In this document: positions 19,359 to 35,900 of the stretch, one piece after another
How the letters are laid out: every line of letters starts with the position of its first letter
Position numbering within the stretch: position 1 is the first letter of the stretch
Origin: Candidatus Shapirobacteria bacterium
GTDB lineage: Bacteria; Patescibacteriota; Microgenomatia; UBA12405
Direction of reading: 5' to 3'
Assembly (NCBI GenBank): GCA_009885205.1
Contig: VFLE01000055.1
Span: forward strand, 11,236 to 75,235
Length of the DNA stretch: 64,000 nt
Position numbers and translations under genes: made by a program
The notes under the pieces: generated by a model
The model's input: only the letters and a program-made list of their open reading frames with translations
Database searches by the model: none
Told to the model about the DNA's origin: nothing

Positions 19359-20531
19359 TTATTTGATGATTTCGGTAATGGCACCAGCACCAACAGTTAG
19401 ACCACCTTCGCGGATAGCGAAACGGAAGCCTTTCTCCATAGCAACAGGTTTTATTAACTTGATAATAACGTTAGCGTTGTCGCCGGGCATGACCATTTCC
19501 ACACCTTCGGGAAGGGTAACATCACCGGTAACATCGGTAGTTCTAATAAAGACTTGAGGTCGATAACCAGTAAAGATTGGAGTATGGCGACCACCTTCTT
19601 CTTTTTTAAGTAAAAGGACTTCGGCTTTAAACTCGGTATGAGGAGTAATTGATCCTGGTTTGGCTAAAACTTGACCACGTTCAATATCGTCTTTTTCGAC
19701 TCCACGAAGGAGCAATCCGACATTATCACCAGCTTGACCTTGGTCAAGTTGTTTGTGGAACATTTCAACTCCGGTAACAACGGCTTTTTTGGTAGGACGA
19801 AGACCAACTATTTCAATTTCGTCGTTAATTTTGATAATACCGCGTTCAATTCGGCCGGTAGCAACAGTTCCTCGACCCTTGATCGAGAAAACATCTTCCA
19901 TCGGCATCAAGAAAGGTAGATCAAGTTCACGCTTAGGTTCAGGAATAGAGGTGTCTAGAGCCTCCATTAACTTTCCGATTGATTCGACACCATCAGCATC
20001 TCCATTGAGAGCTTTAAGTGCAGATCCACGGATAATTGGGATAGAATCACCTGGGAAACCGTATTTGGTTAACAAATCGCGGATTTCCATTTCGACGAGA
20101 TCTAAAAATTCTGGATCAGTAACGAGATCAACTTTGTTTAAGAAAACAACGAGAGCAGGAACGTTAACCTGTTTGGCTAACAAAACGTGCTCACGAGTTT
20201 GTGGCATGGGACCGTCTGGAGCAGAAACAACAAGAATTGCACCGTCCATTTGAGCAGCACCAGTGATCATGTTTTTGACATAATCGGCGTGACCAGGACA
20301 GTCAATGTGAGCATAATGACGGTTAACAGTCTCGTATTCAACGTGGGAAATAGCAATAGTAACAATCTTTGACGCATCACGAACAGTACCGCCTTTGGCG
20401 ATATCGGCGTATGATTTTGGATTACCTTGAACTTTTAAAATGGCCGCAGTTAAGGTAGTTTTTCCATGGTCGACGTGACCGATGGTACCAACGTTAACAT
20501 GGGGCTTGTTTCTTTTATATGTGTCTGCCAT
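19359..20531 (-). CDS. tuf: Elongation factor Tu
   Basis: 390 aa with G1 [14 protein letters not shown] and NKVD motifs and full domains II and III. Confidence 0.95.
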
Positions 20532-20627: not shown

Positions 20628-22733
20628 CTATTTTGTACTAGTCTTAATAGTTAACTTTTCTTGTATATCACGAGGCACTGGATCGTAGTGTGATGGTTCC
20701 ATGTAGAATGAACCGCGACCTTGGGTGAGCGATCGGATGACAGTGGCGTAACCGCGGACGTTGTCGAGAGGGATAGTAGCAGTAATGGTAGTAAAACCAA
20801 AAGAGTCAGTAGTTCCGCCAATTTGACCACGACGAGAAGACAAATCGCCAATAACTGTGCCCATAAATTCGGAAGGAACGGCGACCTCCATTTTCATGAT
20901 TGGTTCGAGTACTAACGGATTGGCAAAACCAAAGGCATCTTTGATAGCATAGTTACCGGCTAATTTAAATGCTTGTTCGGATGAATCAACATCATGATAG
21001 GTACCGTCATAAACAGTGACTTTAATATCAGTACAGGGATAACCAGCGATAATACCCTTGGTTAGGGTTTCGCGAACACCTTTTTCGATGGCGGGAATAA
21101 AGTTGCTAGGAATGGCACCACCCTTGACGGCGTTAACAAACTCGATGCCTTCACCTCGGGCTTTGGGCTCGACATGAATTTTACAGTGTCCATATTGACC
21201 ATGACCACCAGATTGGTGGATATATTTACCCTCACCATCGGCATTAATCGAAATAGTTTCCCGATAAGCGACTTGAGGGGCACCTGTTTTGACATTGACG
21301 CCAAATTCACGACGGAGACGATCAACAATAATTTCGAGATAGAGTTCACCCATACCAGCGATGATGGTTTGACCAGTTTCATGATTGAAAGAGACTTGAA
21401 AAGTAGGATCTTCTTGAGATAACTTATTTAAGGCTTGACCCATTTTTTCCTGATCATCGGCAGTTTCTGGCTCAATAGAGAGGGAAATAACTGGTTCGGG
21501 AAACTGAATTGGGGATAAAGAAATAGGATGATTTTTATCGCAAAGAGTGTCGCCGGTGTAAGAATCTTTAAGGCCGATACAGGCAATTATTTCTCCAGCA
21601 TAACCCTCTTCTAGACCTTCGCGCTTGTCAGCGTGCATGAGCAGTAAACGGCCGATTCTTTCGGACTTTTGACGAGTTGAGTTATAAACTTCGGTACCAG
21701 TTTTGATGGTGCCCGAGTAAACACGAACATAGGAAAGAGTCCCAACGTGGGCATCGGTTTGAACTTTAAATAAAAGAGCCGAAAGAGGTTCATTATTCTC
21801 TGGTTTACGATAAAGTTTTTCACCAGTGCTTACGTCAAATCCCTCGATTGGAGGAAGGTCTAAAGGAGAAGGTAAGTAGTCGATAATAGCTTCTAAAATA
21901 GGATGAATACCTTTGTTGCGCCAGGCGGCTCCACAGTAAACTGGAAATAATTTTAATTTGATAGTGGCGGCACGGAGGGCAGATTTTAGTTCTGGTATAG
22001 AAATTTCCTCGTCATTTAAAAATTTTTCCATTAATTGTTCGTCTTCGCCAGCAATTTTTTCAACCATGACCGCTCGGGCTTTTTTGGCGGCTTCTAAATA
22101 CTCGGGAGTGACGTCTTTGACCGTAAATTCCATACCTTCTGGATCTTTGTCGTAGACAATCATTTTCATTTCCATTAAATCGATGACCCCAACATGGGCG
22201 TGTTCTTCACCAATTGGTAGAACAACAGGAACAATAGGACAGCGAAGTTTTTGGGTTATAGAATCGAGAGTGTTTTGAAACGAGGCCCCAACTTTGTCCA
22301 TTTTATTGACAAAAGCAATCCGAGGCACGCCATATTTGTCAGCTTGACGCCAGACAGTTTCAGATTGGGCCTGAACCCCAGCATTGCCGTCAAAAATCAT
22401 GATAGCGCCATCGAGAACGCGAAGTGAGCGTTCGACTTCGGCGGTAAAGTCAACGTGGCCGGGAGTGTCGATAATGTTGATACGATGATCTTTAAAAAAG
22501 GTGGTAATACAGGCAGATTGGATGGTGATTCCCCTTTCCCTTTCTTGGACCATGGAATCGGTAGTGGTAGTTCCTTCATCAACAGAACCAATTTTGTGAA
22601 TTTTACCAGTATAAAAGAGTAAACGTTCGGTAGTAGTAGTTTTACCGCCATCGATATGAGCAATAATACCGATGTTTCGGACTTTGTTCATGGGAACTGA
22701 ACGTTTTTTGGTGACAACAATTGCATCTGGCAT
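20628..22733 (-). CDS. fusA: Elongation factor G
   Basis: 701 aa with the G domain (AHIDGGKTT, DTPGH) and domains II-V. The true start may be the internal Met at 22691 (MNKVRNIGIIAH). Confidence 0.95.
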   Translation of the reverse strand: MPDAIVVTKKRSVPMNKVRNIGIIAHIDGGKTTTTERLLFYTGKIHKIGSVDEGTTTTDSMVQERERGITIQSACITTFFKDHRINIIDTPGHVDFTAEVERSLRVLDGAIMIFDGNAGVQAQSETVWRQADKYGVPRIAFVNKMDKVGASFQNTLDSITQKLRCPIVPVVLPIGEEHAHVGVIDLMEMKMIVYDKDPEGMEFTVKDVTPEYLEAAKKARAVMVEKIAGEDEQLMEKFLNDEEISIPELKSALRAATIKLKLFPVYCGAAWRNKGIHPILEAIIDYLPSPLDLPPIEGFDVSTGEKLYRKPENNEPLSALLFKVQTDAHVGTLSYVRVYSGTIKTGTEVYNSTRQKSERIGRLLLMHADKREGLEEGYAGEIIACIGLKDSYTGDTLCDKNHPISLSPIQFPEPVISLSIEPETADDQEKMGQALNKLSQEDPTFQVSFNHETGQTIIAGMGELYLEIIVDRLRREFGVNVKTGAPQVAYRETISINADGEGKYIHQSGGHGQYGHCKIHVEPKARGEGIEFVNAVKGGAIPSNFIPAIEKGVRETLTKGIIAGYPCTDIKVTVYDGTYHDVDSSEQAFKLAGNYAIKDAFGFANPLVLEPIMKMEVAVPSEFMGTVIGDLSSRRGQIGGTTDSFGFTTITATIPLDNVRGYATVIRSLTQGRGSFYMEPSHYDPVPRDIQEKLTIKTSTK

Positions 22734-22849
22734 AGGTTAAATAAATTTAAAATTTAGAATTTAAAAAACTAATAAAATAAAAAAATGAGCACTAAAAAGC
22801 CACATTTAAGTGAAATATGATAACACGAAAATATAAAAATTAATTGGTT

Positions 22850-23143
22850 TTAAATCTTTTTTTGTAAAATTCGATAAAAAGTTATGATTGAATATGGAAT
22901 AATTAAAAAAAATAAATATTCTTCAATGGGTAAATAGCCAATTGTTAAACCAATTAAACCAGTACCATTAAAACTCCAATGGCCACGATAAACAGCAAAA
23001 CTGTCCCACAGGGTACCAATAACAAAAAAAATTAAAGGAATTTGCAAACTTTCTTTCCGAGACTGATATAGATGAACGTGTAATTTCCAGTCAAAATATA
23101 GGGTAAATAAAAAAACTAACAATAAAATTGATATATATTCCAT
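22850..23143 (-). CDS. Small membrane protein with lycopene-cyclase-domain-like features
   Basis: 97 aa with 3 TM helices and a PIEEYLFFLIIPY motif, resembling the PxEE(x)xFF motif of CrtYc/CrtYd-type lycopene cyclase domain proteins. This is recalled from memory and no HMM search was run. Confidence 0.45.
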   Translation of the reverse strand: MEYISILLLVFLFTLYFDWKLHVHLYQSRKESLQIPLIFFVIGTLWDSFAVYRGHWSFNGTGLIGLTIGYLPIEEYLFFLIIPYSIITFYRILQKKI

Positions 23144-23161
23144 AGCTTTATTTTAAAGTAT

Positions 23162-24376
23162 ATGATTTATAATTGTTCAATGAATATTGCCATTGTTGGA
23201 GCGGGGATGACGGGATTGGTGGCAGGGTACAGGCTGAGTCAGAAGGGCCATGGGGTAACTATTTTTGAAAAAAGTAATGATATTGGGGGATTGATGGGGG
23301 GATTTAAAATTGGAAAAACTTCACTCGAAAAAGCCTATCATCATATTTTTTCGACAGACAATTATATTATTGATTTGGCAAAAGAGTTAAATTTATTTAA
23401 CAAAATATCGTGGCATGAGGAAAAGACGGCTTTGTTTTATGAGGGTGTGGTTTACCCATTTATGGGGATAATTGACCTATTAAAGTTCAAACCGTTGGAT
23501 TTTATCTCTAAAGTTAGACTGGGTTTAGTTAAAATATGGTTACAAAAAGATAATAATTGGCAAAAGTATGAGAACGAATTGGCCTATTTATGGATGAAAA
23601 AGTGGTGTGGTGAAAAGGCTTATAAAGTAATTTGGGAGCCGTTATTGCGAGGCAAGTTTCATGAAAAATATAAAGAAGTGTCCATGGCCTGGCTCTGGGC
23701 GCGGATTCACACTCGAGGAAATTCATCTAAACTAGGCTATTTTGAAGGAGGATTTAGAATTATGGCGGATGCACTTGCGAAACGGATAAAAGATAAAAGA
23801 GGAGAGATTAAACTAAACTTCAATGTTCAAACTTCAAACTTCAAAACAGAAGAATTTGACAAAGTTTTATATACAGGGGCAAGCAAAGAAATAGATTATT
23901 TGGGGGCGATTTGTGTAATATTTACCAGCAAACAAAGTTTAAGTAAATTTTATTGGCATAATATTAATGACAATAAATCCCCTTTCTTGGCTTTTATTCA
24001 ACATACTAATTTGATTGATAAAAAACAGTACGGGGGAAAACATGTTTATTACATGGGGACTTATATTCCAAATGAAGGTGGATTGATGGACAAATCAGAT
24101 GATCAAATTAAAAAACAGTTTTTTGATTATTTAAAAAATATATTTCCAAAATTTGATGAAAAAAAGATTGAGGAAAATTGGGTATTTAAGTTTAAAAATG
24201 CACAACATATAGTGACAAAAAACTACAAAACACCAATCCGCCAGATGGCGGACAAACTTCAAAAAAATATTTATCAATCTAATTTTGCGCAGATTTATCC
24301 GGAGGACCGTGGCACAAACTTTGCCGTCCGCGAGGGAAATAAAATTGCTAAAGTGATATTATCTAGCCATGAATAA
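23162..24376 (+). CDS. FAD/NAD(P)-binding oxidoreductase of the amine-oxidase / UDP-galactopyranose-mutase / CrtI superfamily
   Basis: 404 aa. N-terminal Rossmann IAIVGAGMTGLVAGYRL, ...EKSNDIGGL, an HHIF motif (Glf-like) and a C-terminal YPEDRGTNFAVREG. It is divergent from the 22850 ORF with an 18-bp spacer. Confidence 0.6.
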   Translation: MIYNCSMNIAIVGAGMTGLVAGYRLSQKGHGVTIFEKSNDIGGLMGGFKIGKTSLEKAYHHIFSTDNYIIDLAKELNLFNKISWHEEKTALFYEGVVYPFMGIIDLLKFKPLDFISKVRLGLVKIWLQKDNNWQKYENELAYLWMKKWCGEKAYKVIWEPLLRGKFHEKYKEVSMAWLWARIHTRGNSSKLGYFEGGFRIMADALAKRIKDKRGEIKLNFNVQTSNFKTEEFDKVLYTGASKEIDYLGAICVIFTSKQSLSKFYWHNINDNKSPFLAFIQHTNLIDKKQYGGKHVYYMGTYIPNEGGLMDKSDDQIKKQFFDYLKNIFPKFDEKKIEENWVFKFKNAQHIVTKNYKTPIRQMADKLQKNIYQSNFAQIYPEDRGTNFAVREGNKIAKVILSSHE

Positions 24377-24878
24377 AATTGATTTGATAATTGGTGATTG
24401 GAATTTATTTTTAAATAAAATTTTTTCTAATTTAAAATCAGTAAATATTGATGTTAAAGAATTTGACCTCGACCACATAGCTTATCGGGCAACAACAAAT
24501 GAGATGTTTGAATCAATGTCGTTAAAACTTGCGGAAATCGGAAATAAAATCCATCGAATAATAATTCGAAATCGTTTTATAGACATATATCAATTGAATG
24601 ATGAAATAGAATACAAAAATAGAAAAATTAAATTTATTGAGTTAATGGCACCAGCAGAAGGTGATCAATTTAGGCCAGGACTGGAACATGTCGAATTTGT
24701 AATTCAAGATAATCTCTATGGATTTGTGAAAAAACACAATAATATTAACTGGAATGTAAAATCAATTGACCGAGAAATTGGGGCTGAAGTCGGAATACTA
24801 TTTGGAAATGGAGCTAGTGTGAAATTCAAAAACCAAAATTTACTCAAAATCTTTCGGTTGGAAGACCAAAAGAATTAA
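24369..24878 (+). CDS. Hypothetical protein, possible VOC (glyoxalase-like) fold
   Basis: 169 aa. LDHIAYRAT and GLEHVEFVIQD are paired beta-alpha-beta-beta-beta-like metal-site motifs. This is a weak call. Confidence 0.35.
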   Translation: MNKIDLIIGDWNLFLNKIFSNLKSVNIDVKEFDLDHIAYRATTNEMFESMSLKLAEIGNKIHRIIIRNRFIDIYQLNDEIEYKNRKIKFIELMAPAEGDQFRPGLEHVEFVIQDNLYGFVKKHNNINWNVKSIDREIGAEVGILFGNGASVKFKNQNLLKIFRLEDQKN

Positions 24879-25738
24879 ATTAATTGCTTCTTTAATTCTA
24901 AAAGACCTTCGATAAGGGTTTTTGGAGAATAGCCAAAGTCGGTGATAAATTTTTGATTGGATAAAGATAAATTTGGGGCGTAGGGGCGGGCGTTGGGAGT
25001 CTTTAAATAATCGGCTAACGACGACGGTTGAACTAAGTTTTGGTCAAAATTAAAAGTTTGAGCGATTAATTTACCCATTTCATAAACTGATTGAGAAGAA
25101 GAACCGACTAGATGATAAATACCTGATTTGGTGTCATTAATTATTTTTCGTAGACCTAGGGCAATATCGTCGATAAAAGTAGGAGTGGTGATTTGATCGG
25201 TAAATAATTTACAGGTTTCGTTATTTTTTAATTTACTTATTATTTTTCTAACTAAATCTATTTTTAAATCGAACTTGGCGCGGTAGGGTGAGGCGATGCG
25301 AATAATAGTAAAATTGTTGGGAATTAATTTTTCGGCCAAATCTTTGGTTTGGGCATACCAGTCTAAAGGCTTTGGAATATCAGTTTCGATGTAGGGAGTG
25401 TCTTTTGAACCATCAAAAACATAGTCGGTGGAAATATGGATTAAATGTTTGCCGTACTTTTGACATAAATTAACAATATTTTGAGTGCCGACAACGTTGA
25501 GTTGATAGCAGAGACCGTTTTTATCCCCTTTTTGATCCCAGGCGGCATTGGTGTCAGTAAAGGCGGCTAAATGTAAAACAACATTGCCAGTAAAATGGGC
25601 AAAGACTGATTCTAAAGTCTCTGGTTTTAAAATATCAAAACCAGTATCGATGGATAAATCGGTAAAATTTATGTCAGGATTTAGCTCGACTATACGAGAA
25701 CCAACTAGACCAGATAAACCTGTACCAATTATTTCCAT
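24875..25738 (-). CDS. rfbD: dTDP-4-dehydrorhamnose reductase
   Basis: GTGLSGLVGSRI Rossmann fold, STDYVFDG and YAQTK. The start is set at the internal Met (25738), giving an ATGGAAATAA overlap with the rfbC stop. The track ORF extends to 25828. Confidence 0.8.
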   Translation of the reverse strand: MEIIGTGLSGLVGSRIVELNPDINFTDLSIDTGFDILKPETLESVFAHFTGNVVLHLAAFTDTNAAWDQKGDKNGLCYQLNVVGTQNIVNLCQKYGKHLIHISTDYVFDGSKDTPYIETDIPKPLDWYAQTKDLAEKLIPNNFTIIRIASPYRAKFDLKIDLVRKIISKLKNNETCKLFTDQITTPTFIDDIALGLRKIINDTKSGIYHLVGSSSQSVYEMGKLIAQTFNFDQNLVQPSSLADYLKTPNARPYAPNLSLSNQKFITDFGYSPKTLIEGLLELKKQLI

Positions 25739-26271
25739 GAATCGAAAGTGGGTAATAATTTGTCTTTGTCGGATAAGACGGGAACAACATCCAGAGGCCA
25801 AGTGACATTTAAGGTTAGGTCGTTCCAAATAATTCCCCGTTCGGATGGTTTATCATAATAATTATCGCATTTATAGGAAAAAATTACGTCTGGAGTGAGA
25901 GTTATAAAACCGTGAAGAAAATCACGGGGGATAAAAAGCATATGATTGTTTTCACCTGATAATTCAAACCCCTCCCAAACACCAAAAGTAGGCGAGTTGG
26001 GTCGCATATCAACGGCGACATCAAAAATTTTACCTTGAATTACTCTAACTAATTTGGCTTGGGATGATTCCCCCGCTTGTAAATGTAAACCTCGGAGAGT
26101 ACCAATTTCTGCTGAAAAAGATTGATTATCTTGGACAAATTTGGCAGTAATACCAGCTTGGTTAAAAACTTTCTCACTATATGATTCAAAAAAGTTGCCA
26201 CGATTGTCACCAAAAACTTGGGGTTTGATCAAAAATAAATCTTTGATTTTTGATGACTCAATAAATTCCAT
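25729..26271 (-). CDS. rfbC: dTDP-4-dehydrorhamnose 3,5-epimerase
   Basis: 180 aa cupin. RGLHLQ...QAKLVRVIQGKIFDVAVDMRPNSPTFG. Confidence 0.85.
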   Translation of the reverse strand: MEFIESSKIKDLFLIKPQVFGDNRGNFFESYSEKVFNQAGITAKFVQDNQSFSAEIGTLRGLHLQAGESSQAKLVRVIQGKIFDVAVDMRPNSPTFGVWEGFELSGENNHMLFIPRDFLHGFITLTPDVIFSYKCDNYYDKPSERGIIWNDLTLNVTWPLDVVPVLSDKDKLLPTFDSWK

Positions 26272-26273
26272 TT

Positions 26274-27641
26274 TTATATAGTTGGAGTTGGAGTGGGCTT
26301 AGGAGTACTAGTAGCAACCTTGGTTGGGGTGACGGTTGTTTTTGGAGTTGGAGTGGTAGCAGTAGTGGGGGCGGCAGCACCGGTTTTGAGGTCGGTACCA
26401 ATGACAAAGACGACATCATAAGTGGAATTTGCCTTAAGATCGGTAATAGTAGCACCAGTGAAATCAGAAATCTTGCTGGTAAAATAGGCCGAAGAAGTAG
26501 AAAGTGATGGTTTTATTTGAATAGTATTGGCAGTAACTTTTTCGGTGGCATTGCCAATGTTGACACTAGTAAAACCTAATTTAGTTAATTTTTCCTTAAT
26601 CACGGCGGCTTGACCACTAATATCAGTGGCATTTAAGACCTGTAATTTTAGAGATTTTGATGGTTCAGTAACAATAATAGATGGGGTAGGAGTAACATCG
26701 ATGACATCAGTGGGAATGGGGGTAATCATGGCAACTTTAGGATCGGTGATATCACTGGGGTTATTATTTTGATTAAGAGCAAACCAGACGATAACGGCGG
26801 CAATAATAGCGGTAAATAAAGCAACTGCGATGATGGGGAGAATATTTTTTTTGTTTTCCATAGGTGCCCCTATTATACCAGCAACCGGAAGGGGAAGGTT
26901 GCCCTGAAATTTTAAATCAACAACTACCTGTGAATCGGTATAAATTGATTTTTCGATGTCGGGAACGTCAAAAATTGGTTCGAGAGAGGTAGGGAGAAAA
27001 ACCTTGGTAGCTGGGGTACCAAAATAGGCTTGAGAGTAATTGATAATCTTTTTGATATCGGGAAGTGATTTTTTGACGATTGAGGTGAGGTAGACCTTGC
27101 CTTGAAAACCCAAGGTGACGAGATATTCTGATTCGAGTGGGTAAAAAACAAAATAAGGTTTATCATAAAAGTTGTCAAAAAGTTTTATTAATCCCTCAGA
27201 CAAGGCAAAATATGATAGTTTTAAGTTTAGAGCGGTTAGATTTTTTAGGAGAGGGGCCAGTTTGACTTGATCAAAAATACGAGCTTGGATTAAGGTTTTG
27301 TCGCCTTGGGGGACAATTTCGTAAGTAACTTGGGAGGGAATAATTTCAAAGGGAGCAGTACCCTTAGCCAAGGTAACGACTTCGTCGAGGCTGACAGAGG
27401 TGACTTTTTCATCATAAACAAAAGATCGGGTAAAAACAACACTATCATCAATTAAGACCGAAGCTCCCAATATTTTTTTACTTTTTAAATAGACGGATAA
27501 ACGGGCTAATTCGGATTCTGTTTGCTCTGCCCATAAATTTATTTCAAAAGAAATTGAATTGTCATTATTTTTGGCAAAATAAATTGATAGATTTTCGGCC
27601 TTGGGCCAAAAGACAATTTTGGAGAGATTGGTTGATGACAT
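26274..27641 (-). CDS. Membrane protein with a C-terminal LytR_C-like extracellular domain and a Pro/Thr-rich tail
   Basis: 455 aa. A cytoplasmic N-domain, one central TM helix (ILPIIAVALFTAIIAAVIVWF), then VLNATDISGQAAVIKEKLTKLGFTSVNIGNA (LytR_C-like) and a ...TPTPKPTPTPTI tail. It is co-directional with rfbCD. Confidence 0.5.
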   Translation of the reverse strand: MSSTNLSKIVFWPKAENLSIYFAKNNDNSISFEINLWAEQTESELARLSVYLKSKKILGASVLIDDSVVFTRSFVYDEKVTSVSLDEVVTLAKGTAPFEIIPSQVTYEIVPQGDKTLIQARIFDQVKLAPLLKNLTALNLKLSYFALSEGLIKLFDNFYDKPYFVFYPLESEYLVTLGFQGKVYLTSIVKKSLPDIKKIINYSQAYFGTPATKVFLPTSLEPIFDVPDIEKSIYTDSQVVVDLKFQGNLPLPVAGIIGAPMENKKNILPIIAVALFTAIIAAVIVWFALNQNNNPSDITDPKVAMITPIPTDVIDVTPTPSIIVTEPSKSLKLQVLNATDISGQAAVIKEKLTKLGFTSVNIGNATEKVTANTIQIKPSLSTSSAYFTSKISDFTGATITDLKANSTYDVVFVIGTDLKTGAAAPTTATTPTPKTTVTPTKVATSTPKPTPTPTI

Positions 27642-27731
27642 AAATTAATGATAGCAGAAAAAAATAAAAATATTTTGTGATTGGGTGATAAGTTTTTGAT
27701 TTTGTTTACTAATTTTGCTTGGGATATAGTG

Positions 27732-27759
27732 GTAGAGACGCCCCGCGGGGCGTCTCTAC
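27732..27759. repeat. REP-like perfect palindrome, family A (core ccccgcgggg), identical to 3098-3125
   Basis: 28-bp perfect inverted repeat, upstream of the 26274..27641 gene. Confidence 0.9.
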
Positions 27760-27826
27760 ATGAAAATTCCAAACAACAATAATTTACGAAAGTCAAAAGA
27801 CCACCCAAACAAAAATTGCTAAAGAA

Positions 27827-28105
27827 CTATTTACAATCAGTGATATCAAGTTTTACGGCCTCAGAGTTTCGAAGAATACAGCCAGTTGAACTAAGTTGCG
27901 TTATACCCCGACAACCGTCTAATATACCTGCACCAATAATTTGTTCTACTGGAATAACACATTTAGCTTTACCAACGGTATCTTCTTGATATGGTTCTCG
28001 ACTAACAATGGGAACTAATTTTGCAATTTCTTCGTCTGAAAGACCTCGTAAAACTGGGCAAAAATTGCGAACGTCAGCTAATTTATGCATAGCATATATT
28101 AACAT
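27827..28105 (-). CDS. Small cysteine-containing hypothetical protein (about 90 aa)
   Basis: The track ORF runs 27827..28144, but its first 13 codons are the rpsG terminator hairpin. The start is therefore taken as an internal Met (MLIYAMHKLADV...). The product has 5 Cys and no recognised domain. Confidence 0.3.
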   Translation of the reverse strand: MLIYAMHKLADVRNFCPVLRGLSDEEIAKLVPIVSREPYQEDTVGKAKCVIPVEQIIGAGILDGCRGITQLSSTGCILRNSEAVKLDITDCK

Positions 28106-28135
28106 AACCAAAAATCCCCCATTTCTGGGGGATTT
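28104..28135 (-). terminator. Intrinsic terminator downstream of rpsG
   Basis: Minus strand: AAATCCCCCA-gaaa-TGGGGGATTT followed by TTTTGGTT. This separates rpsL-rpsG from the inserted island and fusA-tuf. Confidence 0.6.
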
Positions 28136-28153
28136 AAAAATCAATTGATTTAT

Positions 28154-28636
28154 TTACCATCGCATGTGGGCGAAGGCTTTGTTGGCTTCAGCCATACGTT
28201 CGACTTCGGTGCGTTTGCTGATTGAAGCACCTTCGTTGTTGAGAGCTGATTGGAGCTCGGCGGCGAGCTTGAGACCAAAAGAGTGATATTGTTTATTGGC
28301 CTTAGCGCGGGCAGAATTAATTAACCAGCGAATAGCCAGGGAATATTGACGACTACCTCGAACTGGAGTGGGAACTTGGTAGACAGCACCACCAATGCGA
28401 CGAGGACGGACCTCGACTTTTGGTTTAATATTGTCCAAAGCTTGTTCGAGAGTGACCAGAATATCTTCACTTTTAGTTTCTTTTTTAAGAATTTCTAGGG
28501 CTTGATAAACTTGTTTTTGGGCAGCTGACTTTTTGCCGTCCATAATTGAGCGGTTAATAAGCTTGGCGACTATTTCACTGTGATAAAGAACATCGGGTTC
28601 TAAAATTCGTGGAGTTATTTGACCTTTTCTGGACAT
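28154..28636 (-). CDS. rpsG: 30S ribosomal protein S7
   Basis: MSRKGQITPRILEPDVLYHSEIVAKLINRSIMDGKKSAAQK. The start is set at the internal Met. Confidence 0.9.
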   Translation of the reverse strand: MSRKGQITPRILEPDVLYHSEIVAKLINRSIMDGKKSAAQKQVYQALEILKKETKSEDILVTLEQALDNIKPKVEVRPRRIGGAVYQVPTPVRGSRQYSLAIRWLINSARAKANKQYHSFGLKLAAELQSALNNEGASISKRTEVERMAEANKAFAHMRW

Positions 28637-28663
28637 AAATTTAAATTTCAAATATCAAATTTA

Positions 28664-28757
28664 CAAGTTCCAATCAAGTTCCAAATTTTCAAATTCCAAA
28701 TTGGAAATTGTTATTTGTTGATTGTGATTTGTTTGGAAATTGTTTTTTTGGAAATTG
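28664..28757. promoter_or_regulatory. Array of a 10-mer (TTGGAA[A/C]TTG) in the rpsL-rpsG spacer: three inverted copies followed by three direct copies
   Basis: caagttccaa at 28664 and 28675, caaattccaa at 28690, and ttggaaattg at 28701, 28733 and 28748. These include the 17-bp palindrome aattccaa-a-ttggaatt. The position corresponds to the S7 autoregulatory site of E. coli. Confidence 0.4.
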
Positions 28758-28774
28758 TTTTTTAATGAATAATT

Positions 28775-29197
28775 TTAAGCAGTTGTTTTTACGGGACGTT
28801 TAGTACCGTATTTACTGCGAGATTGTAAGCGACCAGCGACGGGGGCAGCGTCGTATTTTCCCCGTAAAATGTGATAACGGACACCTGGTAAGTCCCTGAC
28901 GCGACCGGCGCGAATGGAAACGATACCGTGTTCGGCCAAGTTGTGGCCAATACCGGGAATGTAGGCCGTAATGGTGGCTTTGTTGCTAAGTCGAACCCTG
29001 GCGACCTTACGCAAAGCCGAATGAGGCTTTTTGGGGGTCATAGTCTTGACCACTGTGACAACACCCTTTTTAAAAGGATTAAAAGACGAGACAAGGCGAT
29101 TTTTAATACTATTAAAGTTGTTACGCAGGGCACCTGATTTTAATTTTGAGCGCCTGACGACTCGACCTTTTCTGATTAATTGATTGACGGTTGGCAT
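28775..29197 (-). CDS. rpsL: 30S ribosomal protein S12
   Basis: [12 protein letters not shown]...PKKPNSALRK-type sequence, 140 aa. Confidence 0.95.
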
Positions 29198-29203: not shown

Positions 29204-32200
29204 TTATATTTGTCGAATTTTCCCGACGGGAATTAGACGTCCGATAATAACATTTTCCTTGAGACCTATCAAGTTATCGACTTCACCCAAGAGTGAGGCC
29301 TCGGTCAATACCGAAGTAGTTTGTTGGAATGAAGCAGCCGAAAGCCATGATCCAGTGGAGAGAGCCGACTGAATTAGACCCAATAAAACTTTTTTGCCTC
29401 GGGCTGGTTTACCACCATTGGCTTTGGCTTTGTCATTTTGATCTTGATAAACAGCTTTGGTGACAATTTGACCATAAAGGAAATTGGTATCTTCGGGGTC
29501 ATTAATTTTGATTTTGTCACTCATCTCTTTGACCATAACTTCGATGTGTTTATCATGAATACCAACACCTTGTGATTCGTAAACACCCTGAATACTGTTG
29601 ATCAAATATTTTTGGGCCTCTTCCAAACCTGAGACTTCGAGAATATTGCGAACATCAAGAGGACCAGAGCAGAGTTGGGTTCCGATTGAAACTAGATCAT
29701 CATCGGCAACTAACAATGAAACATTGCTGGGAAGTTGATAAGAAACTGTTTTAGCAATATTTTCCTCATTTTTACCGGTAATTTTGATATCAAAACCGTC
29801 AATAGTCTCTTTGATCTTTATTTTGCCCGATAATTCGGAAATAGGTGAAGGGAATTTGGGCATACGAACTTCAAAAAGCTCCTGAATCCGGGGCAAACCT
29901 TGAGTCACGTCGACACCTAGAACACCTCCAGTATGCTTGGTTCGAAGAGTTAGTTGAGTCCCTGGTTCACCAATAGATTGAGCGGCGACGACTCCAACTG
30001 GAACACCTAAACTGACTAATTTACGAGTGGAAAGATCCCAACCATAGCATTGACGACATAAACCTTGCATCGATTTGCAAGTTAAAGGGGAGCGAACAGC
30101 AACCGAACTTACAGTTGAATTTTCGATAATAACTTGCAAGTGACTATCGATTAAAGTACCAGCGGAAACTAATACTTTTTTGGTGGTAGGATCGACAATA
30201 TCTTCGCCCACTACCCGACCTAATAAACGACGACCAAAGAATTTTTCCCGATTTTTTTCAGTACGAGAAATGATCCAATATTTAGTGGAGCCACAGTCAT
30301 CTTCGCGGGTGATGGCTACATGAGCACTGTCAACCAGACGACGGGTTAAGTAACCAGCGTCAGCAGTACGCAAAGCTGTGTCAGCCAAACCTTTGCGGGT
30401 ACCCCGAGCTCCGGTGATATATTCAAAAACGGACAAACCTTCGCGGAAATTTGATTTGGTAGGTAATTGAACGATTTTACCGGTAGGATCAACCATTAGT
30501 CCTCTCATACCGGAAAGTTGTTTGATTTGGTCCTTGGAAGCCCGCTTGATACCGGCAGCAGCAATAATACGAATAGGAGAATCAATGTCTAGAGTTGCCC
30601 AAGTTTTCTCCGCAATATCTTCGGTAATTTCCATCCAAATGCTTTGAGATAGACGTTTGCGTTCTTCGTTGGTGACTAGACCGGTTTTATAAGATTCTTC
30701 GATTTGAGCCACTCGATCGTTGGCGGCGGCGACGATTTTATTTTTTTCGGGTAAATAACCACAATCAGCCATAGATAGGGACAAACCAGATAAGGTAAAA
30801 CCAGCAAAACCAAGATCTTTGAGAGAGTCAATTAAATGCACAGTCTTAATTCGACCGGCAACTTCAATTGATTTGACAATCAAATCATTAAGAGCTTTTG
30901 ACCCAGCCATTGGAGTGTTGATAAACTCAAATTCTTTGGGTAAAACAGAGTTAAACCAAATTCGGCCATAAGTGGTTTTGACTAATTTGCCATTAATACG
31001 AACAACCACTAGTTCACGGAGTCCAATTTTTTTGGATTGATAGGCAAGGGTAGCTTCGTTGGTGTCGGCCAAAATTGATAAGTTACCAAATCCCTCATCT
31101 GTTTCGGTTTTAAGATCCGAACTTTGAACTGAGGTAATGTAATAACAACCGACTGCCATTTCCTGAGAAGGAATGGAAACTGGAGCCCCATCGGAGGGCT
31201 TGAGTAGATTTCGAGAAGGTAACATTAATAATTTAGCTTCGCGCTGTGAAGCGACTGATAGAGGTAAATGAACCCCCATTTGGTCACCATCAAAATCGGC
31301 ATTAAAACCTTTACAGACACAAGGATGGATGCGAATTGCCAATCCATCGGTTAAAATTGGTCTAAAAGCTTGAATTGATAGTTTGTGTAAAGTTGGAGCC
31401 CGATTTAATAAAACATAAGTATCTTTGGTGACTCTTTCTAAAATGTCGTAGACTTCGTCAACTCGATGATCGATTAAGTTTTTGGCACTTTTGATGTTAG
31501 CCGCCAGACCGGTGTTCATTAATTCACGTAAAACAAATGGTCGATAAATTTCTAGAGCAATTTCTTTGGGAAGACCAACTTGATTTAGTTTTAACTCGGG
31601 ACCAACTACAATCACTGATCGACCCGAATAATCAACCCGCTTACCAAGTAAGTTGCGACGGAAACGACCTTTTTTGCTTCGCAAAAGATCGGATAGAGAT
31701 CGGGGTAAACGTTTGGAATTACTTTTGCTTTTATTTTTGGTTGATTTTTGAGAATCAATGAGCATGTCAACTGATTCTTGCAACATTCTTTTTTCATTAC
31801 GTAAAATAATCTCGGGAGCTCCTAATTTGATAAGTTTTTTGAGACGATTATTGCGATTAATTAGTCGGCGATAGAGATCATTTAAATCAGAGGTAGCAAA
31901 ACGACCACCAGTGAGTTGAACCATGGGACGCAAATCTGGCGGAATAACTGGGACATGTTTGAGAATGGTCCAGCTAGGATCGATGGACTCGGAAATCATG
32001 CCATTTAGAATCCGAATCTTGTACATGATTTTCTTTTTCTTGAGCTTGGAACTAGTTTTTTCTAGTTCTATCTTGAGATTTTTGACGGTCGAGGGCAAAT
32101 CGAGACCTTGCATAACTTCAAGTAAAGCTTGGGCCCCCATTTGGGCTTCATAAAAAATGTTGGCCTTGAATTGGTCTAAATAAAACTCTTCTTCGTCGGT

Positions 32201-32938
32201 TAAAACTGAAAGGACTGATAAATTTTTGACTTTGTCTTCGAGGAAATTCATGAGTGACTCGATTCTATTTTTTTCGGCCGAAGCTTTGTTTTCGATTTTT
32301 TGCAAATCTTGTTTTAATTTGACAGCTCGTTCCTTTTGGGCAATTAAAAGCTGCTCGGGATTTTTGATTTTATTTTTGAGGGCCGTAGTTTCGGCCTCGG
32401 ATTCGGATTTTAATTTATCTGAGGTAATTTTGGAGTCAACATCAATTTGGGCTTGGCGTTTTTGAGAGTTGACCGAGAGATTGGTCATGGCCTCTTTACG
32501 TTTGTCATTATTGATGGAAGTTACCAGGTATTTAGTAAAATAAACTACAGATTCCAAATCTTTTTGAGAAACATCAAGAACAACACCAATGGGTGAAGGA
32601 GTATTTTTAAGGTACCAAAGATGAACGATAGGAGCAGCTAGGGAAATATGTCCCATACGCTCGCGACGGACTTTACTTGTCGTAACTTCAACACCGCATT
32701 TATCACAAATAACACCTTTAAATCGGATTTTTTTGTATTTTCCACAGTAACATTCGTAGTCATGACTGGGTCCAAAGATTTTTTCACAAAAAAGACCATC
32801 TTTTTCGGGACGCCAAGAACGATAATTAATTGTTTCCGGTTTTAAAACTTCACCTTGGGACCAAGCAAGGACTTCGTCGGGAGAAGCCAACTTAATCTTG
32901 ATACCTGTAAAGTTGAGCATATTTTTAAATTTAAACAT
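29204..32938 (-). CDS. rpoC: DNA-directed RNA polymerase beta' subunit
   Basis: 1244 aa. Zn-binding CxxC...C, NADFDGD catalytic motif, trigger loop and bridge helix. Confidence 0.95.
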   Translation of the reverse strand: MFKFKNMLNFTGIKIKLASPDEVLAWSQGEVLKPETINYRSWRPEKDGLFCEKIFGPSHDYECYCGKYKKIRFKGVICDKCGVEVTTSKVRRERMGHISLAAPIVHLWYLKNTPSPIGVVLDVSQKDLESVVYFTKYLVTSINNDKRKEAMTNLSVNSQKRQAQIDVDSKITSDKLKSESEAETTALKNKIKNPEQLLIAQKERAVKLKQDLQKIENKASAEKNRIESLMNFLEDKVKNLSVLSVLTDEEEFYLDQFKANIFYEAQMGAQALLEVMQGLDLPSTVKNLKIELEKTSSKLKKKKIMYKIRILNGMISESIDPSWTILKHVPVIPPDLRPMVQLTGGRFATSDLNDLYRRLINRNNRLKKLIKLGAPEIILRNEKRMLQESVDMLIDSQKSTKNKSKSNSKRLPRSLSDLLRSKKGRFRRNLLGKRVDYSGRSVIVVGPELKLNQVGLPKEIALEIYRPFVLRELMNTGLAANIKSAKNLIDHRVDEVYDILERVTKDTYVLLNRAPTLHKLSIQAFRPILTDGLAIRIHPCVCKGFNADFDGDQMGVHLPLSVASQREAKLLMLPSRNLLKPSDGAPVSIPSQEMAVGCYYITSVQSSDLKTETDEGFGNLSILADTNEATLAYQSKKIGLRELVVVRINGKLVKTTYGRIWFNSVLPKEFEFINTPMAGSKALNDLIVKSIEVAGRIKTVHLIDSLKDLGFAGFTLSGLSLSMADCGYLPEKNKIVAAANDRVAQIEESYKTGLVTNEERKRLSQSIWMEITEDIAEKTWATLDIDSPIRIIAAAGIKRASKDQIKQLSGMRGLMVDPTGKIVQLPTKSNFREGLSVFEYITGARGTRKGLADTALRTADAGYLTRRLVDSAHVAITREDDCGSTKYWIISRTEKNREKFFGRRLLGRVVGEDIVDPTTKKVLVSAGTLIDSHLQVIIENSTVSSVAVRSPLTCKSMQGLCRQCYGWDLSTRKLVSLGVPVGVVAAQSIGEPGTQLTLRTKHTGGVLGVDVTQGLPRIQELFEVRMPKFPSPISELSGKIKIKETIDGFDIKITGKNEENIAKTVSYQLPSNVSLLVADDDLVSIGTQLCSGPLDVRNILEVSGLEEAQKYLINSIQGVYESQGVGIHDKHIEVMVKEMSDKIKINDPEDTNFLYGQIVTKAVYQDQNDKAKANGGKPARGKKVLLGLIQSALSTGSWLSAASFQQTTSVLTEASLLGEVDNLIGLKENVIIGRLIPVGKIRQI

Positions 32939-32940: not shown

Positions 32941-35900
32941 TTAGTTTTCCTCCTTGACTTCAACTTCTTCTAACACAGGTTCTGGTTCTATTTCACCATC
33001 GGGAGAAATATCGATAACCAGTCCTGCTAATTCTTTGGTAAGAACTTTAAATGATTCGGGGATATCAGGCTCGGGAATAGGAGTGCCTTTAATAATAGCT
33101 TGAAAAGCCCGAGTTCGACCTTCAATATCGTCAGACTTGATAGTCAACATTTCTTGGAGAATGTGGGCAGCTTGATGGGCTTCAAGAGACCAAACTTCCA
33201 TTTCTCCTAACCGTTGACCACCCATTCTGGCCTTACCACCTAAAGGTTGTTGAGTGACCAGGGAATATGGCCCGGTAGATCGAGCATGAACTTTGTCATC
33301 AACCATGTGAACCAGCTTAAGAATATAACCAACACCAACAACTGTTTCTTGTTCGTAGGCATCACCAGTGCGACCATCATAAAGCTGAGTTTTTCCGGTG
33401 ACTGACAAACCAGCGGCTTTTAGCTCGGAACCAATTTGATCTTCGGTGTATTTTTCAAAAACAGGGACGGCATAATGTTTGTTTAATTTTAGTCCGGCAG
33501 CGGCCAAGGTGACTTCAAGGATTTGACCAAGGTTCATACGAGCCACGACCGAGAGAGGTGACATAACCAAATCAATGGGAGTACCATCGGCCAAACGGGG
33601 CATGTCATACTCGGGCATGATGCGACAAATAACACCTTTATTCCCGTGTCTTCCGGCAATTTTGTCACCTTCTTGGATACGACGAATTTGGGCAACATAA
33701 ACCTTGACCATTTTGTTGACACCAGGATCGAGTTCGTCTTCTTGTTCTTTGGACAATATTTCAACCTTGATGACGACTCCCCCTTCTCCATTGGGAACGC
33801 GAAGTGAGGTATCTTTGACTTCACGGGCTTTTTCTCCAAAAATGGCACGAAGTAATCTTTCTTCGGCACTAAGTTCTTTTTCACCACGAGGTTCAACTTT
33901 ACCAACTAAAATGTCATTAGGACCGACGGTAGCGCCAATCATGACAATACCATCTTCGGTCAATTTAGCCAACTCATTTTCGGAAACATTGGGAATATCT
34001 TTGGTCAATTCTTCGGAACCTAATTTAGTTTCAACCACATTAGCTTGATATTCATAAATTTGAATATTGGTTAAAACATCTTCTTTAACCAGTCTGTCAG
34101 AAATTAAAAATGAATCTTCGTAACCAAGACCATCAATAGAGGCGTAGGCAACTAGTAAATTAGTACCAATGGATAATTCACCATTATCAGTAGAAGGACC
34201 ATCAATAATAACTTCACCTTTTTTGACAACATCGCCAACATTGACTAAAACTTTTTGATTATAACAAGTACCATAGGGTGAAGTACGTTCAAATTTTGCG
34301 GTAAAATAGGTAATATCATCGACGATTACTTTGTCGGCGTCAACATAAGAAACGACACCGGCTTTGGTGGCTTGAACTGAACGGTGCATAGCAGTAGCAA
34401 TTTCTCGCTCCATACCAGTTCCAACAATGGGGGCTTGGGGTTTGACCAATGGTACGGCTTGAGTCTGCATGTGAGAACCCATTAGGGCCCGAGTAGCATC
34501 GTCATGATCGACAAAAGGAATTAGAGAAGCCGAGGAACCAATGATTTCGTTGGGAACCATGTCGACATATTCAACATCATCAATGTAACCTTCGGCAAAT
34601 TCGCCTTGAAAACGAACTGGTACCCAATTTTGAGTAATATTATTTTTGTCATCAACACTAATACTTAAATTAGTAGTCTTGTGATTAAACTCATCTTCGG
34701 CGTCCAAAAAGACGATATCGTCACTAATCGCTAGTTTTTTACCATTTTTAATAATTTTTCTAAAAGGGGCAAGCAAAAATCCATATTTATCGACCTTGGC
34801 GTACAGGGCTAGATAAGTAACCAAACCGATGTTGGGACCTTCGGGAGATCGAACGGTACAAATACGACCGTACTGGGAGGCATGAACGTCACGAATCGAA
34901 AAGGCGGCTCGCTCACGAGTTAAACCACCAACACCAACGACAGTCACCCGACGGAGTAAATCAATTTCGGCTAAAGGATTAGTTTGGTCTAAAATAGCGG
35001 ATAATTGATTGCTTCTAAAAAAAGTATTGAGAGAGGAAATCATGGGTTGTGGGTTGATCATTTGACTGGGACTGGGTTTTTCTTTGGTAGAAAGAAGAGA
35101 CATTCTCTCCTTAACCATTCGCTCGAACCGAGCCATAGCGGGTCTGAGGGCAATTTGGGCGACGATTTCACCAGCACGACGTAAACGACGATTGGCGAGT
35201 GAATCGATATCATCAAATTGTTTGGTTTCACCTTTTTGTAATTTGATCAAATGTTTGAGAGTGGCGATTAAATCTTCGGATCGAAGTACCCAATTTTCTC
35301 GATTGGTATCATCAAAATTAAAACCAAATTTTTTATTGACTTTGTGACGACCAACAAAACCTAATTCATAGGTTCGCAAATCAAAAAAACGATCGTTAAA
35401 AAATTTCTCTGAATTCTCCAAAACTACTGGTTCGCCGGGACGCATTTTGCGATAAAATTCGAGCAAAGCTTCTTCCTTGGTTTTGGTCGGATCGGCAGAA
35501 ATAGTACTATTAATATATTCACCAAGTTCGTTTTGAATTTGTTTGTCGGTATACCCGGTTAAGGCCCGAAGTAAAACAGTAGCCGGAACTTTCTTTTTTC
35601 GGTCAATACGGGCAAAAATAACTTCTTTTTTGCCAACAAAAAATTCTAACCAAGAGCCGCGGACAGGGCGAATTTCGGCATTACAAAGATTTTTACCAGT
35701 ACTGTGATCAATTTGAGCGGTAAAATAAACGCCAGGGGAACGAACTAATTGATTGATGATACCCCGTTCAATACCGTTGACAATAAAAGTTGCTTCGGGG
35801 GTCATGGTGGGCAAGTTTAGGAGGAAAACTGATTCTTCTTTGACTAAACCAGTCCGTTTGTTGGTTAGTTTGGCTTTGACAACAATGGGAACAGTATAAT

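Follow-up and report, generated by a model that had tools for sequence, protein, structure and literature searches.

An envelope-gene module between rpsG and fusA as a probably inherited feature of the Shapirobacteria str operon

In the 64-kb stretch of Candidatus Shapirobacteria DNA that was analyzed (the window), the gene map places rpsL-rpsG and fusA-tuf 5.4 kb apart, a separation that an earlier note had reported and that the gene coordinates bear out. Specifically, rpsG (28154-28651, minus strand; ribosomal protein S7, Pfam Ribosomal_S7, E 4.7e-49) is the final gene of the rpoB-rpoC-rpsL-rpsG block, and the distal half of the str operon, consisting of fusA (20628-22733, minus strand) and tuf (19359-20531, minus strand), is followed by rpsJ-rplC-rplD. 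The window retains the order and orientation of rpsL, rpsG, fusA and tuf found in the str operon of E. coli and B. subtilis, and these genes sit between rpoBC and the S10 operon, as is canonical. Unlike the canonical operon, it has a terminator after rpsG, a separate promoter-like element before fusA and a wide rpsG-fusA gap, which spans 3.9-11.7 kb in related loci. All six genes that the note had named in the gap are present, along with a seventh that it had overlooked, and its claim of cell-envelope content holds, given a LytR_C protein and dTDP-sugar enzymes between rpsG and fusA.

The LytR_C gene (26274-27641, minus strand; PF13399, E 2.9e-8) encodes a bitopic membrane protein. Structure prediction indicates a PilM/GspL-like pseudo-actin domain at residues ~5-260, which lacks the usual DxG phosphate motif, and a transmembrane helix at 268-293, followed by a Pro/Thr linker, a LytR_C ectodomain (330-415) that is Cei-like in the predicted structure, and a Pro/Thr tail. 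The family comprises 217 matches among 5.8 billion proteins and is restricted to Shapirobacteria-type genomes. In M. tuberculosis, LytR_C solo-domain proteins serve wall homeostasis and bind LCP ligases via LytR_C (PMC11832169). The extracytoplasmic LytR_C domain of the window protein resembles those of M. tuberculosis Cei/Rv2700 and VirR/Rv0431; both of these, however, are without the ~260-residue PilM/GspL-like pseudo-actin cytoplasmic domain, and the window protein scores far under the Cei equivalog cutoff (33 versus 150 bits). The protein might serve as a scaffold at the wall, with no catalytic role of its own.

Two nucleotides beyond the LytR_C gene lies rfbC/rmlC (25729-26271, minus strand), encoding a dTDP-4-dehydrorhamnose 3,5-epimerase (TIGR01221, 216 bits, cutoff 156). 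It overlaps by 7 nt the gene for an RmlD-like dTDP-4-dehydrorhamnose reductase (rfbD; 24875-25735, minus strand), whose start was set at the ATG overlapping the rfbC stop. The reductase matches Pfam RmlD_sub_bind (173 bits) and reaches 159 bits against TIGR01214, below the equivalog cutoff of 224. As in an rmlABCD cluster, an RmlC above its equivalog cutoff is followed by an RmlD-family reductase in an overlapping frame; unlike such a cluster, the window encodes the last two steps only, with an RmlD under the cutoff. That rfbC and rfbD stand here without rfbA and rfbB had been noted before, and tblastn with the RfbA and RfbB of a relative as queries detected neither gene in the whole 64-kb window.

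On the opposite strand, the gene for a FAD-dependent oxidoreductase of the PRK07233 family (23162-24376, plus strand; NCBIfam NF005560, 413 bits, cutoff 252) overlaps by 8 nt that for a YecM-family protein with the VOC fold (24369-24878, plus strand; PF06185, E 1.2e-22). The flavoenzyme also matches Pfam Amino_oxidase and NAD_binding_8, and its AlphaFold2 model (pLDDT 90) shares the two-domain FAD fold of the phytoene desaturase, protoporphyrinogen oxidase and amine oxidase flavoenzymes. The nearest folds are phytoene desaturase (TM-score 0.81, to the rice enzyme) and protoporphyrinogen oxidase (0.75-0.77), with merely 14-16% identity to these fold neighbors. Its scores fall far under the cutoffs of the CrtI, phytoene desaturase, HpnE, protoporphyrinogen oxidase and UDP-galactopyranose mutase models, and NF005560 itself carries no functional name. 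The slot adjoining fusA is occupied by a gene for a small membrane protein of 97 aa with a lycopene-cyclase domain (22850-23143, minus strand; PF18916; TIGR03462, 65.5 bits, cutoff 39). Finally, the 512-bp spacer between rpsG and the LytR_C gene contains a REP-like palindrome and a small Cys-rich ORF (27827-28105, minus strand; 92 aa from ATG). The ORF has no Pfam or NCBIfam match and a GC3 of 0.18 versus a GC of 0.37. Among 1.84 billion representative proteins it has 11 distant homologues of 80-90 aa that share the pattern CP...C...GCR.VT..SSTGCPLR.

The locus was compared with 10 related loci from nine distinct Candidatus Shapirobacteria (CPR) genomes, L001 and L084 being near-duplicates; eight loci were reached via FAD-oxidoreductase homologues plus an rpsG scan and two independently via the LytR_C protein. 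In this set, which was assembled through core proteins or the rpsG scan (one close relative) and would miss module-less Shapirobacteria, all 10 loci contain rpsG, the LytR_C gene, at least one rfb-type gene, an opposite-strand flavoenzyme gene and fusA. In each of them, the LytR_C gene lies directly 3' of rpsG, and the flavoenzyme gene (product 52-79% identical to that of the window) has the same place and orientation, adjoining fusA on the opposite strand. Identities between window and relatives are 75-91% for rpoC, 64-92% for S7, 78-95% for EF-G, 90-96% for EF-Tu and 39-80% for the LytR_C protein. The named sources of both core proteins are Shapirobacteria, Microgenomates and Woesebacteria, with two probable mis-binnings as exceptions. 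In the outgroup CPR genome, Nomurabacteria L034, rpsG and fusA are adjacent. The synteny check of rpsG-fusA therefore speaks against a lineage-specific island, as the core recurs in the same arrangement in every related locus.

The remaining content is less constant. At this site, tblastn found the cyclase-domain gene and the Cys-rich ORF in none of the 10 related loci and the YecM gene in one (L086, 44% identity). By sequence comparison, the cyclase-domain gene, the YecM gene and the 512-bp spacer are the only lineage-specific cargo here. Homologues of the cyclase-domain protein in other CPR bacteria occur in unrelated gene contexts; with this gene sporadic and the flavoenzyme far below the carotenoid-type and HpnE cutoffs, the isoprenoid module that had been proposed finds no support. 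Lineage-specific cargo turns over in four slots (rpsG/LytR_C, rfbD/flavoenzyme, flavoenzyme/fusA and fusA/tuf), and the small cargo proteins show no relationship between different loci. The rfb genes at the site range from the full rfbA-rfbB-rfbC-rfbD, like rmlABCD, through BCD, CD, and AB plus a D-like gene to B alone. Orthologues of the RmlD-like protein are found in 7/10 related loci (48-79% identical), and the identities of rfbC to the relatives' copies are far more scattered (29-84%), which suggests in-place replacement or exchange of some module genes, rfbC itself among them. On this reading of the sequences, rfbA and rfbB would have been lost from the window's site, and the module would make dTDP-L-rhamnose for a wall glycopolymer if the organism has the complete pathway.

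The boundaries of the gap carry candidate transcription signals. An intrinsic-terminator-like hairpin with a U-run follows rpsG (28112-28135, minus strand; MFE -17.7 kcal/mol, z -2.5); its 10-bp stem with five G-C pairs, the subsequent UUUUU and the folding energy agree with the earlier proposal that rpsG has its own terminator. The hairpin and U-run are comparable in L081, L082 and L089; L084, L087 and L088 have none after rpsG, and their rpsG/LytR_C spacers measure just 17-50 nt. Six nucleotides before the LytR_C start codon, the extended -10-like motif TGCTATCAT (27648-27656, minus strand) is a possible leaderless promoter of this gene, and similar TGnTAnnAT motifs stand immediately before the ATG in the spacers of relatives. 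A further extended -10-like motif, TGTTATCAT (22817-22825, minus strand), 83 nt upstream of fusA, is the putative fusA-tuf promoter. The window and 9/9 related loci examined have a TGnTATnAT element 39-105 nt upstream of fusA, with the TCGTGTTATCATA-type form kept in the window and seven related loci and the variants TGATATTAT and TGATATGAT in L094 and L095. This conservation lends indirect support to the promoter that the note had assigned to fusA-tuf.

These elements are compatible with a model in which the rpoB-rpoC-rpsL-rpsG transcript would end, at least partly, at the 28112-28135 hairpin, and LytR_C-rfbC-rfbD would form a separate unit starting from the -10-like element 6 nt before its ATG. 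The flavoenzyme and YecM genes would converge on this unit, and fusA-tuf transcription would start at the conserved TGTTATCAT element. In E. coli, rpsG and fusA are coupled both translationally and transcriptionally. The gap, the terminator and the separate promoter-like element mean that coupling of this type cannot operate in the window.

The composition of the intervening DNA is host-like. Its minus-strand genes show ordinary codon-usage distances (0.93-1.39) and a GC that falls within the spread seen for non-ribosomal genes of the window, and every other plus-strand gene in the window shares the codon deviation seen in the flavoenzyme and YecM genes. The tetranucleotide distance of 17.2 (mean 12.6) ranks third of 118 segments scored; those over rpoC and ribosomal-protein genes exceed or nearly match it (to 17.8), and those at 43-48 kb come near it (to 16.1). 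The stretch is somewhat AT-richer (0.34 versus a window mean of 0.386 +/- 0.04). Profile searches found no integrase or mobility domains in it, no direct repeats flank it, and the 64-kb window contains no tRNA. Import, for which the note had suggested GC, codon and k-mer checks, is unsupported because the arrangement is essentially shared and the composition host-like. The stretch is very probably an ordinary, vertically inherited synteny variant and the normal gene order of Candidatus Shapirobacteria (Microgenomates, CPR), passed on without recent import. An envelope module would have become fixed between rpsG and fusA in the ancestor of the clade, with an invariant core of two genes, encoding the LytR_C protein and the PRK07233-family flavoenzyme, and a variable rfb subset between them.

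An unlikely alternative reads the rpsG/fusA junction as a permissive operon-boundary hotspot that tolerates insertions without functional coupling, its core genes being kept by descent, with no regulatory or functional tie among themselves or to translation genes. Four slots with unrelated cargo (toxin-antitoxin, NUDIX, DUF202, DUF5677, CoA-transferase and many orphans) fit this reading, as do the opposite strand of the flavoenzyme gene and the terminator after rpsG in some genomes, the window included. However, the LytR_C gene is always first after rpsG despite heavy surrounding turnover, including behind the short, hairpin-less spacers of L084, L087 and L088, and no other conserved gene ever comes between the flavoenzyme gene and fusA; such constant positions argue for selection on position. 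The hotspot reading differs from vertical inheritance of a fixed module in functional coupling only, which the latter asserts weakly.

It is quite improbable that the LytR_C protein is part of a type IV pilus or type II secretion assembly platform (a PilM-PilN or GspL equivalent) and that the module serves pilus biogenesis instead of wall glycopolymer synthesis. Type IV pili are common among CPR bacteria (PMC11623550), and the protein mirrors GspL and PilM-PilN in its actin-like cytoplasmic domain with no obvious nucleotide-binding motif, single transmembrane helix and small alpha/beta ectodomain. Yet identity is 8-12%, with no sequence-level relationship, the ectodomain is LytR_C, and neither the window nor any related locus has secretion or pilus partner genes (pilB, pilC, pilN, pilO, gspE/gspM) close by; the constant neighbors of the LytR_C gene are sugar-nucleotide enzymes.

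Highly improbable is the view of the earlier note that the 5.4 kb are a horizontally acquired accessory envelope or isoprenoid-glycan island in this lineage: although most bacteria, and L034 too, have an uninterrupted str operon, the stretch is AT-richer than its ribosomal flanks, a repeated palindrome stands at one edge, most or all relatives lack the cyclase-domain gene, YecM gene and small ORF at the site, and the scattered rfbC identities indicate some exchange, the core keeps its place and orientation in diverged relatives, composition is indistinguishable from the window's other non-ribosomal parts with a codon deviation that follows strand, integrase, tRNA and flanking repeats are lacking, and LytR_C identities that track ribosomal-gene divergence contradict one recently spreading element. 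For the core genes, the synteny data (10/10 loci) refute it.

The palindrome, GTAGAGACGCCCCGCGGGGCGTCTCTAC (27732-27759), is perfect, with a 12-bp stem (-25.8 kcal/mol, z -5.4), and is unlike a canonical terminator in having no U-run. It is a repeated element, as had been proposed, but a genome-wide intergenic one and not an island border. No copies occur in ~21 kb from each of nine relatives; in the window there are three near-identical copies, and its family, AGAGACG...CGTCTCT, forms eight hairpins versus none expected by chance.

The rpoB-rpoC-rpsL-rpsG block lies on the minus strand, with rpoB (32941-36138) most upstream, followed by rpoC (29204-32938), rpsL (28775-29197) and rpsG (28154-28651). 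Beyond a 5.4-kb stretch, the same strand carries fusA (20628-22733) and tuf (19359-20531), after which come rpsJ-rplC-rplD. The str genes rpsL, rpsG, fusA and tuf keep their order and orientation, but 5,420 bp separate rpsG from fusA, in contrast to the contiguous canonical operon. The split described in the earlier note is therefore real, as is the terminator-like structure 3' of rpsG. Profile searches against Pfam and NCBIfam likewise confirm all six genes that the note had listed in the interval: a 455-aa bitopic membrane protein with a LytR_C domain and a Pro/Thr-rich linker and tail (26274-27641, minus strand), RmlC (TIGR01221, 216 bits vs a cutoff of 156), an RmlD-family reductase (173 bits in Pfam, under the TIGR01214 equivalog cutoff), a plus-strand YecM/VOC protein, a plus-strand FAD oxidoreductase (23162-24376) and a 97-aa membrane protein with a lycopene-cyclase domain (22850-23143). 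The count of six missed a seventh gene at 27827-28105, whose 92-aa, Cys-rich product has a few distant homologues of 80-90 aa with a common conserved cysteine pattern. Neither rfbA nor rfbB occurs anywhere in the 64-kb window, as the note had held for the site itself; of the four enzymes in the dTDP-L-rhamnose RmlABCD set, the window thus holds RmlC above its curated cutoff and RmlD above the Pfam cutoff only.

The comparison with related genomes indicates that this arrangement is a trait of the clade. An S7 scan of genome contigs returned mostly unrelated phyla, the informative hits being one Shapirobacteria locus (L001, 66% identity) and one Nomurabacteria genome. Other loci came from the contigs of seven homologues of the flavoenzyme, that is, the FAD oxidoreductase (58-76% identity), and two more were reached independently via LytR_C homologues of about 40% identity. 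In L001, the closest species-representative genome by S7, the LytR_C gene starts 24 nt past rpsG and is followed by rfbA-rfbB-rfbC-rfbD. The order rpoB-rpoC-rpsL-rpsG, LytR_C, at least one dTDP-sugar gene, an opposite-strand flavoenzyme and fusA recurs in all ten related loci, a sample drawn, except for the S7-scan locus, through the module's own proteins, so that Shapirobacteria without the module could have been missed. Among these relatives, rpsG and fusA lie 3.85 to 11.7 kb apart, and the shortest intervals (L095 and L087) contain only LytR_C, rfbB and the flavoenzyme. Relative to the window, identities are 75-91% for rpoC, 64-92% for S7, 78-95% for EF-G, 39-80% for LytR_C and 52-76% for the flavoenzyme, values that mark the loci as those of clearly distinct species and not as copies of a single mobile element. 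In the Nomurabacteria locus, an outgroup within the CPR, rpsG adjoins fusA. Nearly all named homologues of the two core proteins, flavoenzyme and LytR_C, come from Candidatus Shapirobacteria, Microgenomates or Woesebacteria, which places the window in a CPR bacterium of this group. Upstream of rpoB (window 36251-40495; L094 1-1801; L095 149-1840), window and relatives also have in common a group of proteins of secreted or surface type (PsbP_2-like, Pacifastin/VWC2L-like Cys-rich and Big_13) plus a UPF0004/radical-SAM gene, so synteny reaches well past the str region.

The earlier note had read the interval as an imported, accessory module, and this reading fails the synteny comparison that the note itself had proposed, with the core of LytR_C, rfb and flavoenzyme genes lying between rpsG and fusA in every related locus. 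Nor does composition bear it out. GC content of the interval's genes is 0.27-0.39, against 0.386 +/- 0.04 for the remaining genes of the window; the region is mildly AT-rich, below its ribosomal flanks and within the range of other non-ribosomal genes. Codon-usage distances of its minus-strand genes are ordinary (0.93-1.39). Those of the flavoenzyme (5.15) and YecM (2.23) compare with 3.7-8.4 for the remaining plus-strand genes of the window, and we rejected the flavoenzyme value as a foreign signal since all plus-strand genes of the window lie at 2.2-8.4. Specifically, the plus-strand genes (693-2827, 23162-24878 and 40025-41572) all deviate from the minus-strand majority, which sits at about 1. 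As GC skew of the plus strand is strongly positive over nearly the whole window, we take this deviation as a strand effect, indicative of strand-specific mutational bias. In strand-symmetric tetranucleotide composition the interval lies at a distance of 17.2 (mean 12.6, sd 1.8); windows that cover rpoC and ribosomal-protein genes nearly equal or exceed this value (up to 17.8), and those at 43-48 kb approach it (up to 16.1). Hallmarks of mobility are equally missing: the window has no tRNA, the borders of the interval carry no pair of direct repeats, and Pfam and NCBIfam searches gave no integrase or transposase domain. Absence from the same place in relatives, deviant composition and mobility signatures would characterize a horizontally acquired island, and the core displays none of them. 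Rather than a mobile island, the arrangement is a variant of the str operon specific to this lineage.

The main value of this check is thus negative, in that the island interpretation does not hold. A broken near-universal operon, AT-rich envelope genes and a palindrome at the border together mimic an island when a single sequence is viewed, and here they turn out to be a clade trait. Import should therefore be claimed only after synteny has been compared, above all in CPR genomes, whose ribosomal blocks serve as phylogenetic and binning anchors; the conserved split could itself become a synteny marker for Shapirobacteria.

What varies at the site is the cargo around the core and the rfb complement. 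All four genes, rfbABCD, are present in L081 and in the near-duplicates L084 and L001, rfbBCD in L088, L089 and L094, rfbCD in the window and L082, rfbAB with an rfbD-like gene in L086, and rfbB alone in L087 and L095. Identity to the window copy is 48-79% for rfbD orthologues and 29-84% for rfbC, a wider spread which suggests that rfbC was replaced in place in some lineages. Among relatives, the YecM gene is found at the same site in L086 only, and the cyclase-domain gene and the small Cys-rich ORF at this site in none. The same slots hold NUDIX, DUF202, DUF2164, a CoA-transferase or orphan genes in other genomes, and the small cargo proteins adjoining fusA in different relatives have no Pfam domain and, when compared with each other, no mutual homology. 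The rpsG/LytR_C spacer, home of the small ORF and a palindrome, measures 512 bp in the window vs 17-145 nt in most relatives. What is truly lineage-specific comes down to the cyclase-domain gene, the YecM gene and the small ORF, all of them small cargo, plus a REP-like hairpin. The fusA-tuf spacer constitutes a further variable slot (L081-L089 and L095), which in the window is just 96 nt long and free of cargo. Relatives carry YafQ/ParE-type toxin-antitoxin pairs, DUF5677, an S6PP-type hydrolase or orphan genes there; in L084, glycosyltransferases come after fusA, with no tuf.

Transcription signals are compatible with separate units on either side of the split. The terminator that the note had placed after rpsG is present as a hairpin with a U-run at 28112-28135 (10-bp G+C-rich stem, 18 nt past the rpsG stop, MFE -17.7 kcal/mol, z -2.5), and the rpoB-rpsG transcript would stop here, at least in part. 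LytR_C, rfbC and rfbD are closely packed, with a 2-nt gap and then a 7-nt overlap, and TGCTATCAT lies 6 nt before the LytR_C ATG. A promoter element so near the start codon would imply a leaderless LytR_C-rfbC-rfbD message; TGnTAnnAT-like elements stand right before the ATG in relatives too, even where the whole spacer is 17 nt. The flavoenzyme gene overlaps the YecM gene by 8 nt, the pair being convergent with rfbD. A putative separate promoter for fusA-tuf, likewise proposed in the note, is supported by TCGTGTTATCATA at -83 nt of fusA, a motif that the window shares with all nine related loci examined, each time upstream of this gene. In most of the relatives examined for it (L081, L082, L084, L086-L089 and L094), a G+C-rich hairpin with a U-run follows this -10-like motif within the putative fusA leader, also when the preceding gene is divergent (L084 and L087). 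This hairpin, weak in the window (22734-22830, z -0.4), may act as a leader attenuator for fusA-tuf. Additionally, the rpsG and fusA leaders (window 28652-28774 and 22734-22790; fusA leaders of L082, L086 and L088) are built of short A+T-rich motifs in tandem, such as aatttccaatttggaatttgaaaatttggaactt in the window and TAATTCGTAATTCATAATTCGTAATT in relatives, and lack an obvious Shine-Dalgarno sequence.

Two strongly conserved but uncharacterised proteins emerge from the analysis, the PRK07233 flavoenzyme and the membrane protein that joins a PilM/GspL-like domain to LytR_C; both belong to a lineage whose metabolism is minimal. An AlphaFold2 model of the membrane protein, built with 67 family members (mean pLDDT 84), comprises a compact cytoplasmic domain (residues 5-260), a long transmembrane helix (268-293), a disordered Pro/Thr linker, a beta-alpha-beta-beta-alpha-beta-beta ectodomain (332-414) and a disordered Pro/Thr tail. 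In the predicted structure, the N-terminal domain has the actin-like fold of PilM, GspL and FtsA. Its first beta-hairpin carries (V/L)WPK in place of the DxG phosphate-binding motif across 67 aligned sequences, and the protein is therefore, like GspL, probably not an ATPase. Partner genes of the pilN/pilO, gspE/gspM or ftsZ type were found neither in the window nor in the related loci. Pfam and NCBIfam detect only the LytR_C domain and no catalytic LCP domain, which sets the protein apart from LytR-CpsA-Psr ligases and places it with Cei/VirR-type solo-domain proteins, whose membrane-anchored, extracytoplasmic LytR_C likewise lacks LCP. In Streptomyces, the role of the LytR_C domain is reported as still unknown (PMC11481543). 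Full-length relatives number 217 matches in 5.8 billion proteins, the named ones being of Shapirobacteria type, and we found no description of the PilM/GspL-like-LytR_C architecture or of the split gene order in the searchable literature.

Functionally, the module of the window would plausibly supply the last two dTDP-L-rhamnose steps together with a non-catalytic transmembrane scaffold at the wall. The constant company that the two conserved proteins keep with dTDP-sugar genes offers a testable lead on CPR cell-wall glycopolymers. In some genomes the rpsG/LytR_C spacer is only 17-50 nt long and has no terminator, and the flavoenzyme always abuts the fusA promoter region. A bolder proposal, which we consider unlikely, takes the invariant place of the LytR_C gene right after rpsG as a sign of a functional unit: Shapirobacteria would express a wall-glycopolymer (rhamnan) scaffold in step with their ribosomal and translation-factor operons, the LytR_C protein would form a new class of transmembrane scaffold joining a cytoplasmic actin-like module to glycopolymer attachment, and the PRK07233 flavoenzyme would oxidise something in that pathway.

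The flavoenzyme itself belongs to NF005560 (PRK07233; 413 bits vs a cutoff of 252), a family of FAD oxidoreductases without a functional name; identity of 52-79% within the clade indicates that the protein is strongly constrained. The model (pLDDT 90) has a two-domain FAD fold that matches phytoene desaturase (TM 0.81), protoporphyrinogen oxidase (0.75-0.77) and monoamine oxidase. Assignment to Glf, CrtI, protoporphyrinogen oxidase or HpnE was rejected on curated cutoffs (crtI_fam 29 vs 238, phytoene_desat 27 vs 569, HpnE 54 vs 283, proto_IX_ox 38 vs 98, UDP-GALP_mutase 23 vs 304), so that only the fold is held in common with these enzymes and with UDP-galactopyranose mutase. The isoprenoid role suggested in the note is upheld neither by these scores nor by the relatives. 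The cyclase-domain gene is missing at the site in all of them, and its homologues in other CPR bacteria are solitary, in unrelated neighbourhoods and without an adjoining flavoenzyme, and we rejected the two as an isoprenoid pair. A heterodimeric CrtYc/CrtYd lycopene cyclase has two half-domains accompanied by crtB and crtI; the window, in contrast, encodes a single 97-aa domain with no second half-domain and no match of CrtB or CrtI grade.

The palindrome at 27732-27759, which the note had read as an island edge, is real and has two further near-identical copies in the window. It belongs to a dispersed hairpin family, AGAGACG-N10-CGTCTCT, with eight intergenic copies in 64 kb against none expected by chance (3100-3123, 9622-9645, 27734-27757, 47514-47537, 47713-47736, 47770-47793, 56148-56171 and 63659-63682) and an imperfect one at 3194. 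The inner stems (GCCCCGCGGGGC, GCCATATATGGC, GTGATTAATCAC, GTAGCGCGCTAC and GCACCATGGTGC) differ and all stay palindromic; repeated and imperfectly conserved in intergenic DNA, the family counts among REP-like palindromes. Being dispersed and without a U-run, the palindrome was rejected both as a border and as a terminator. None of nine relatives has a copy in about 21 kb each, including L081 with 91% rpoC identity, which indicates a recent, genome-specific expansion. Three copies of a 79-nt repeat (3194-3272, 9622-9700 and 56148-56226; 80-84% identical) combine one hairpin with a conserved 55-nt tail, ACAATGACACGAATATGCCGAATATTGGGGAATAAATGCATCGAAACAAACAATG, and lie a few nt 3' of minus-strand genes. 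No known RNA from Rfam matches the window, this repeat included; candidates for its nature are a small MITE-like element and a 3'-UTR/sRNA element. Finally, a 119-nt direct repeat (37044-37162 and 38078-38196; 82% identical) links the 5' parts of the adjacent genes 36251-37177 and 37189-38181, which suggests that a surface-protein gene was duplicated in tandem.
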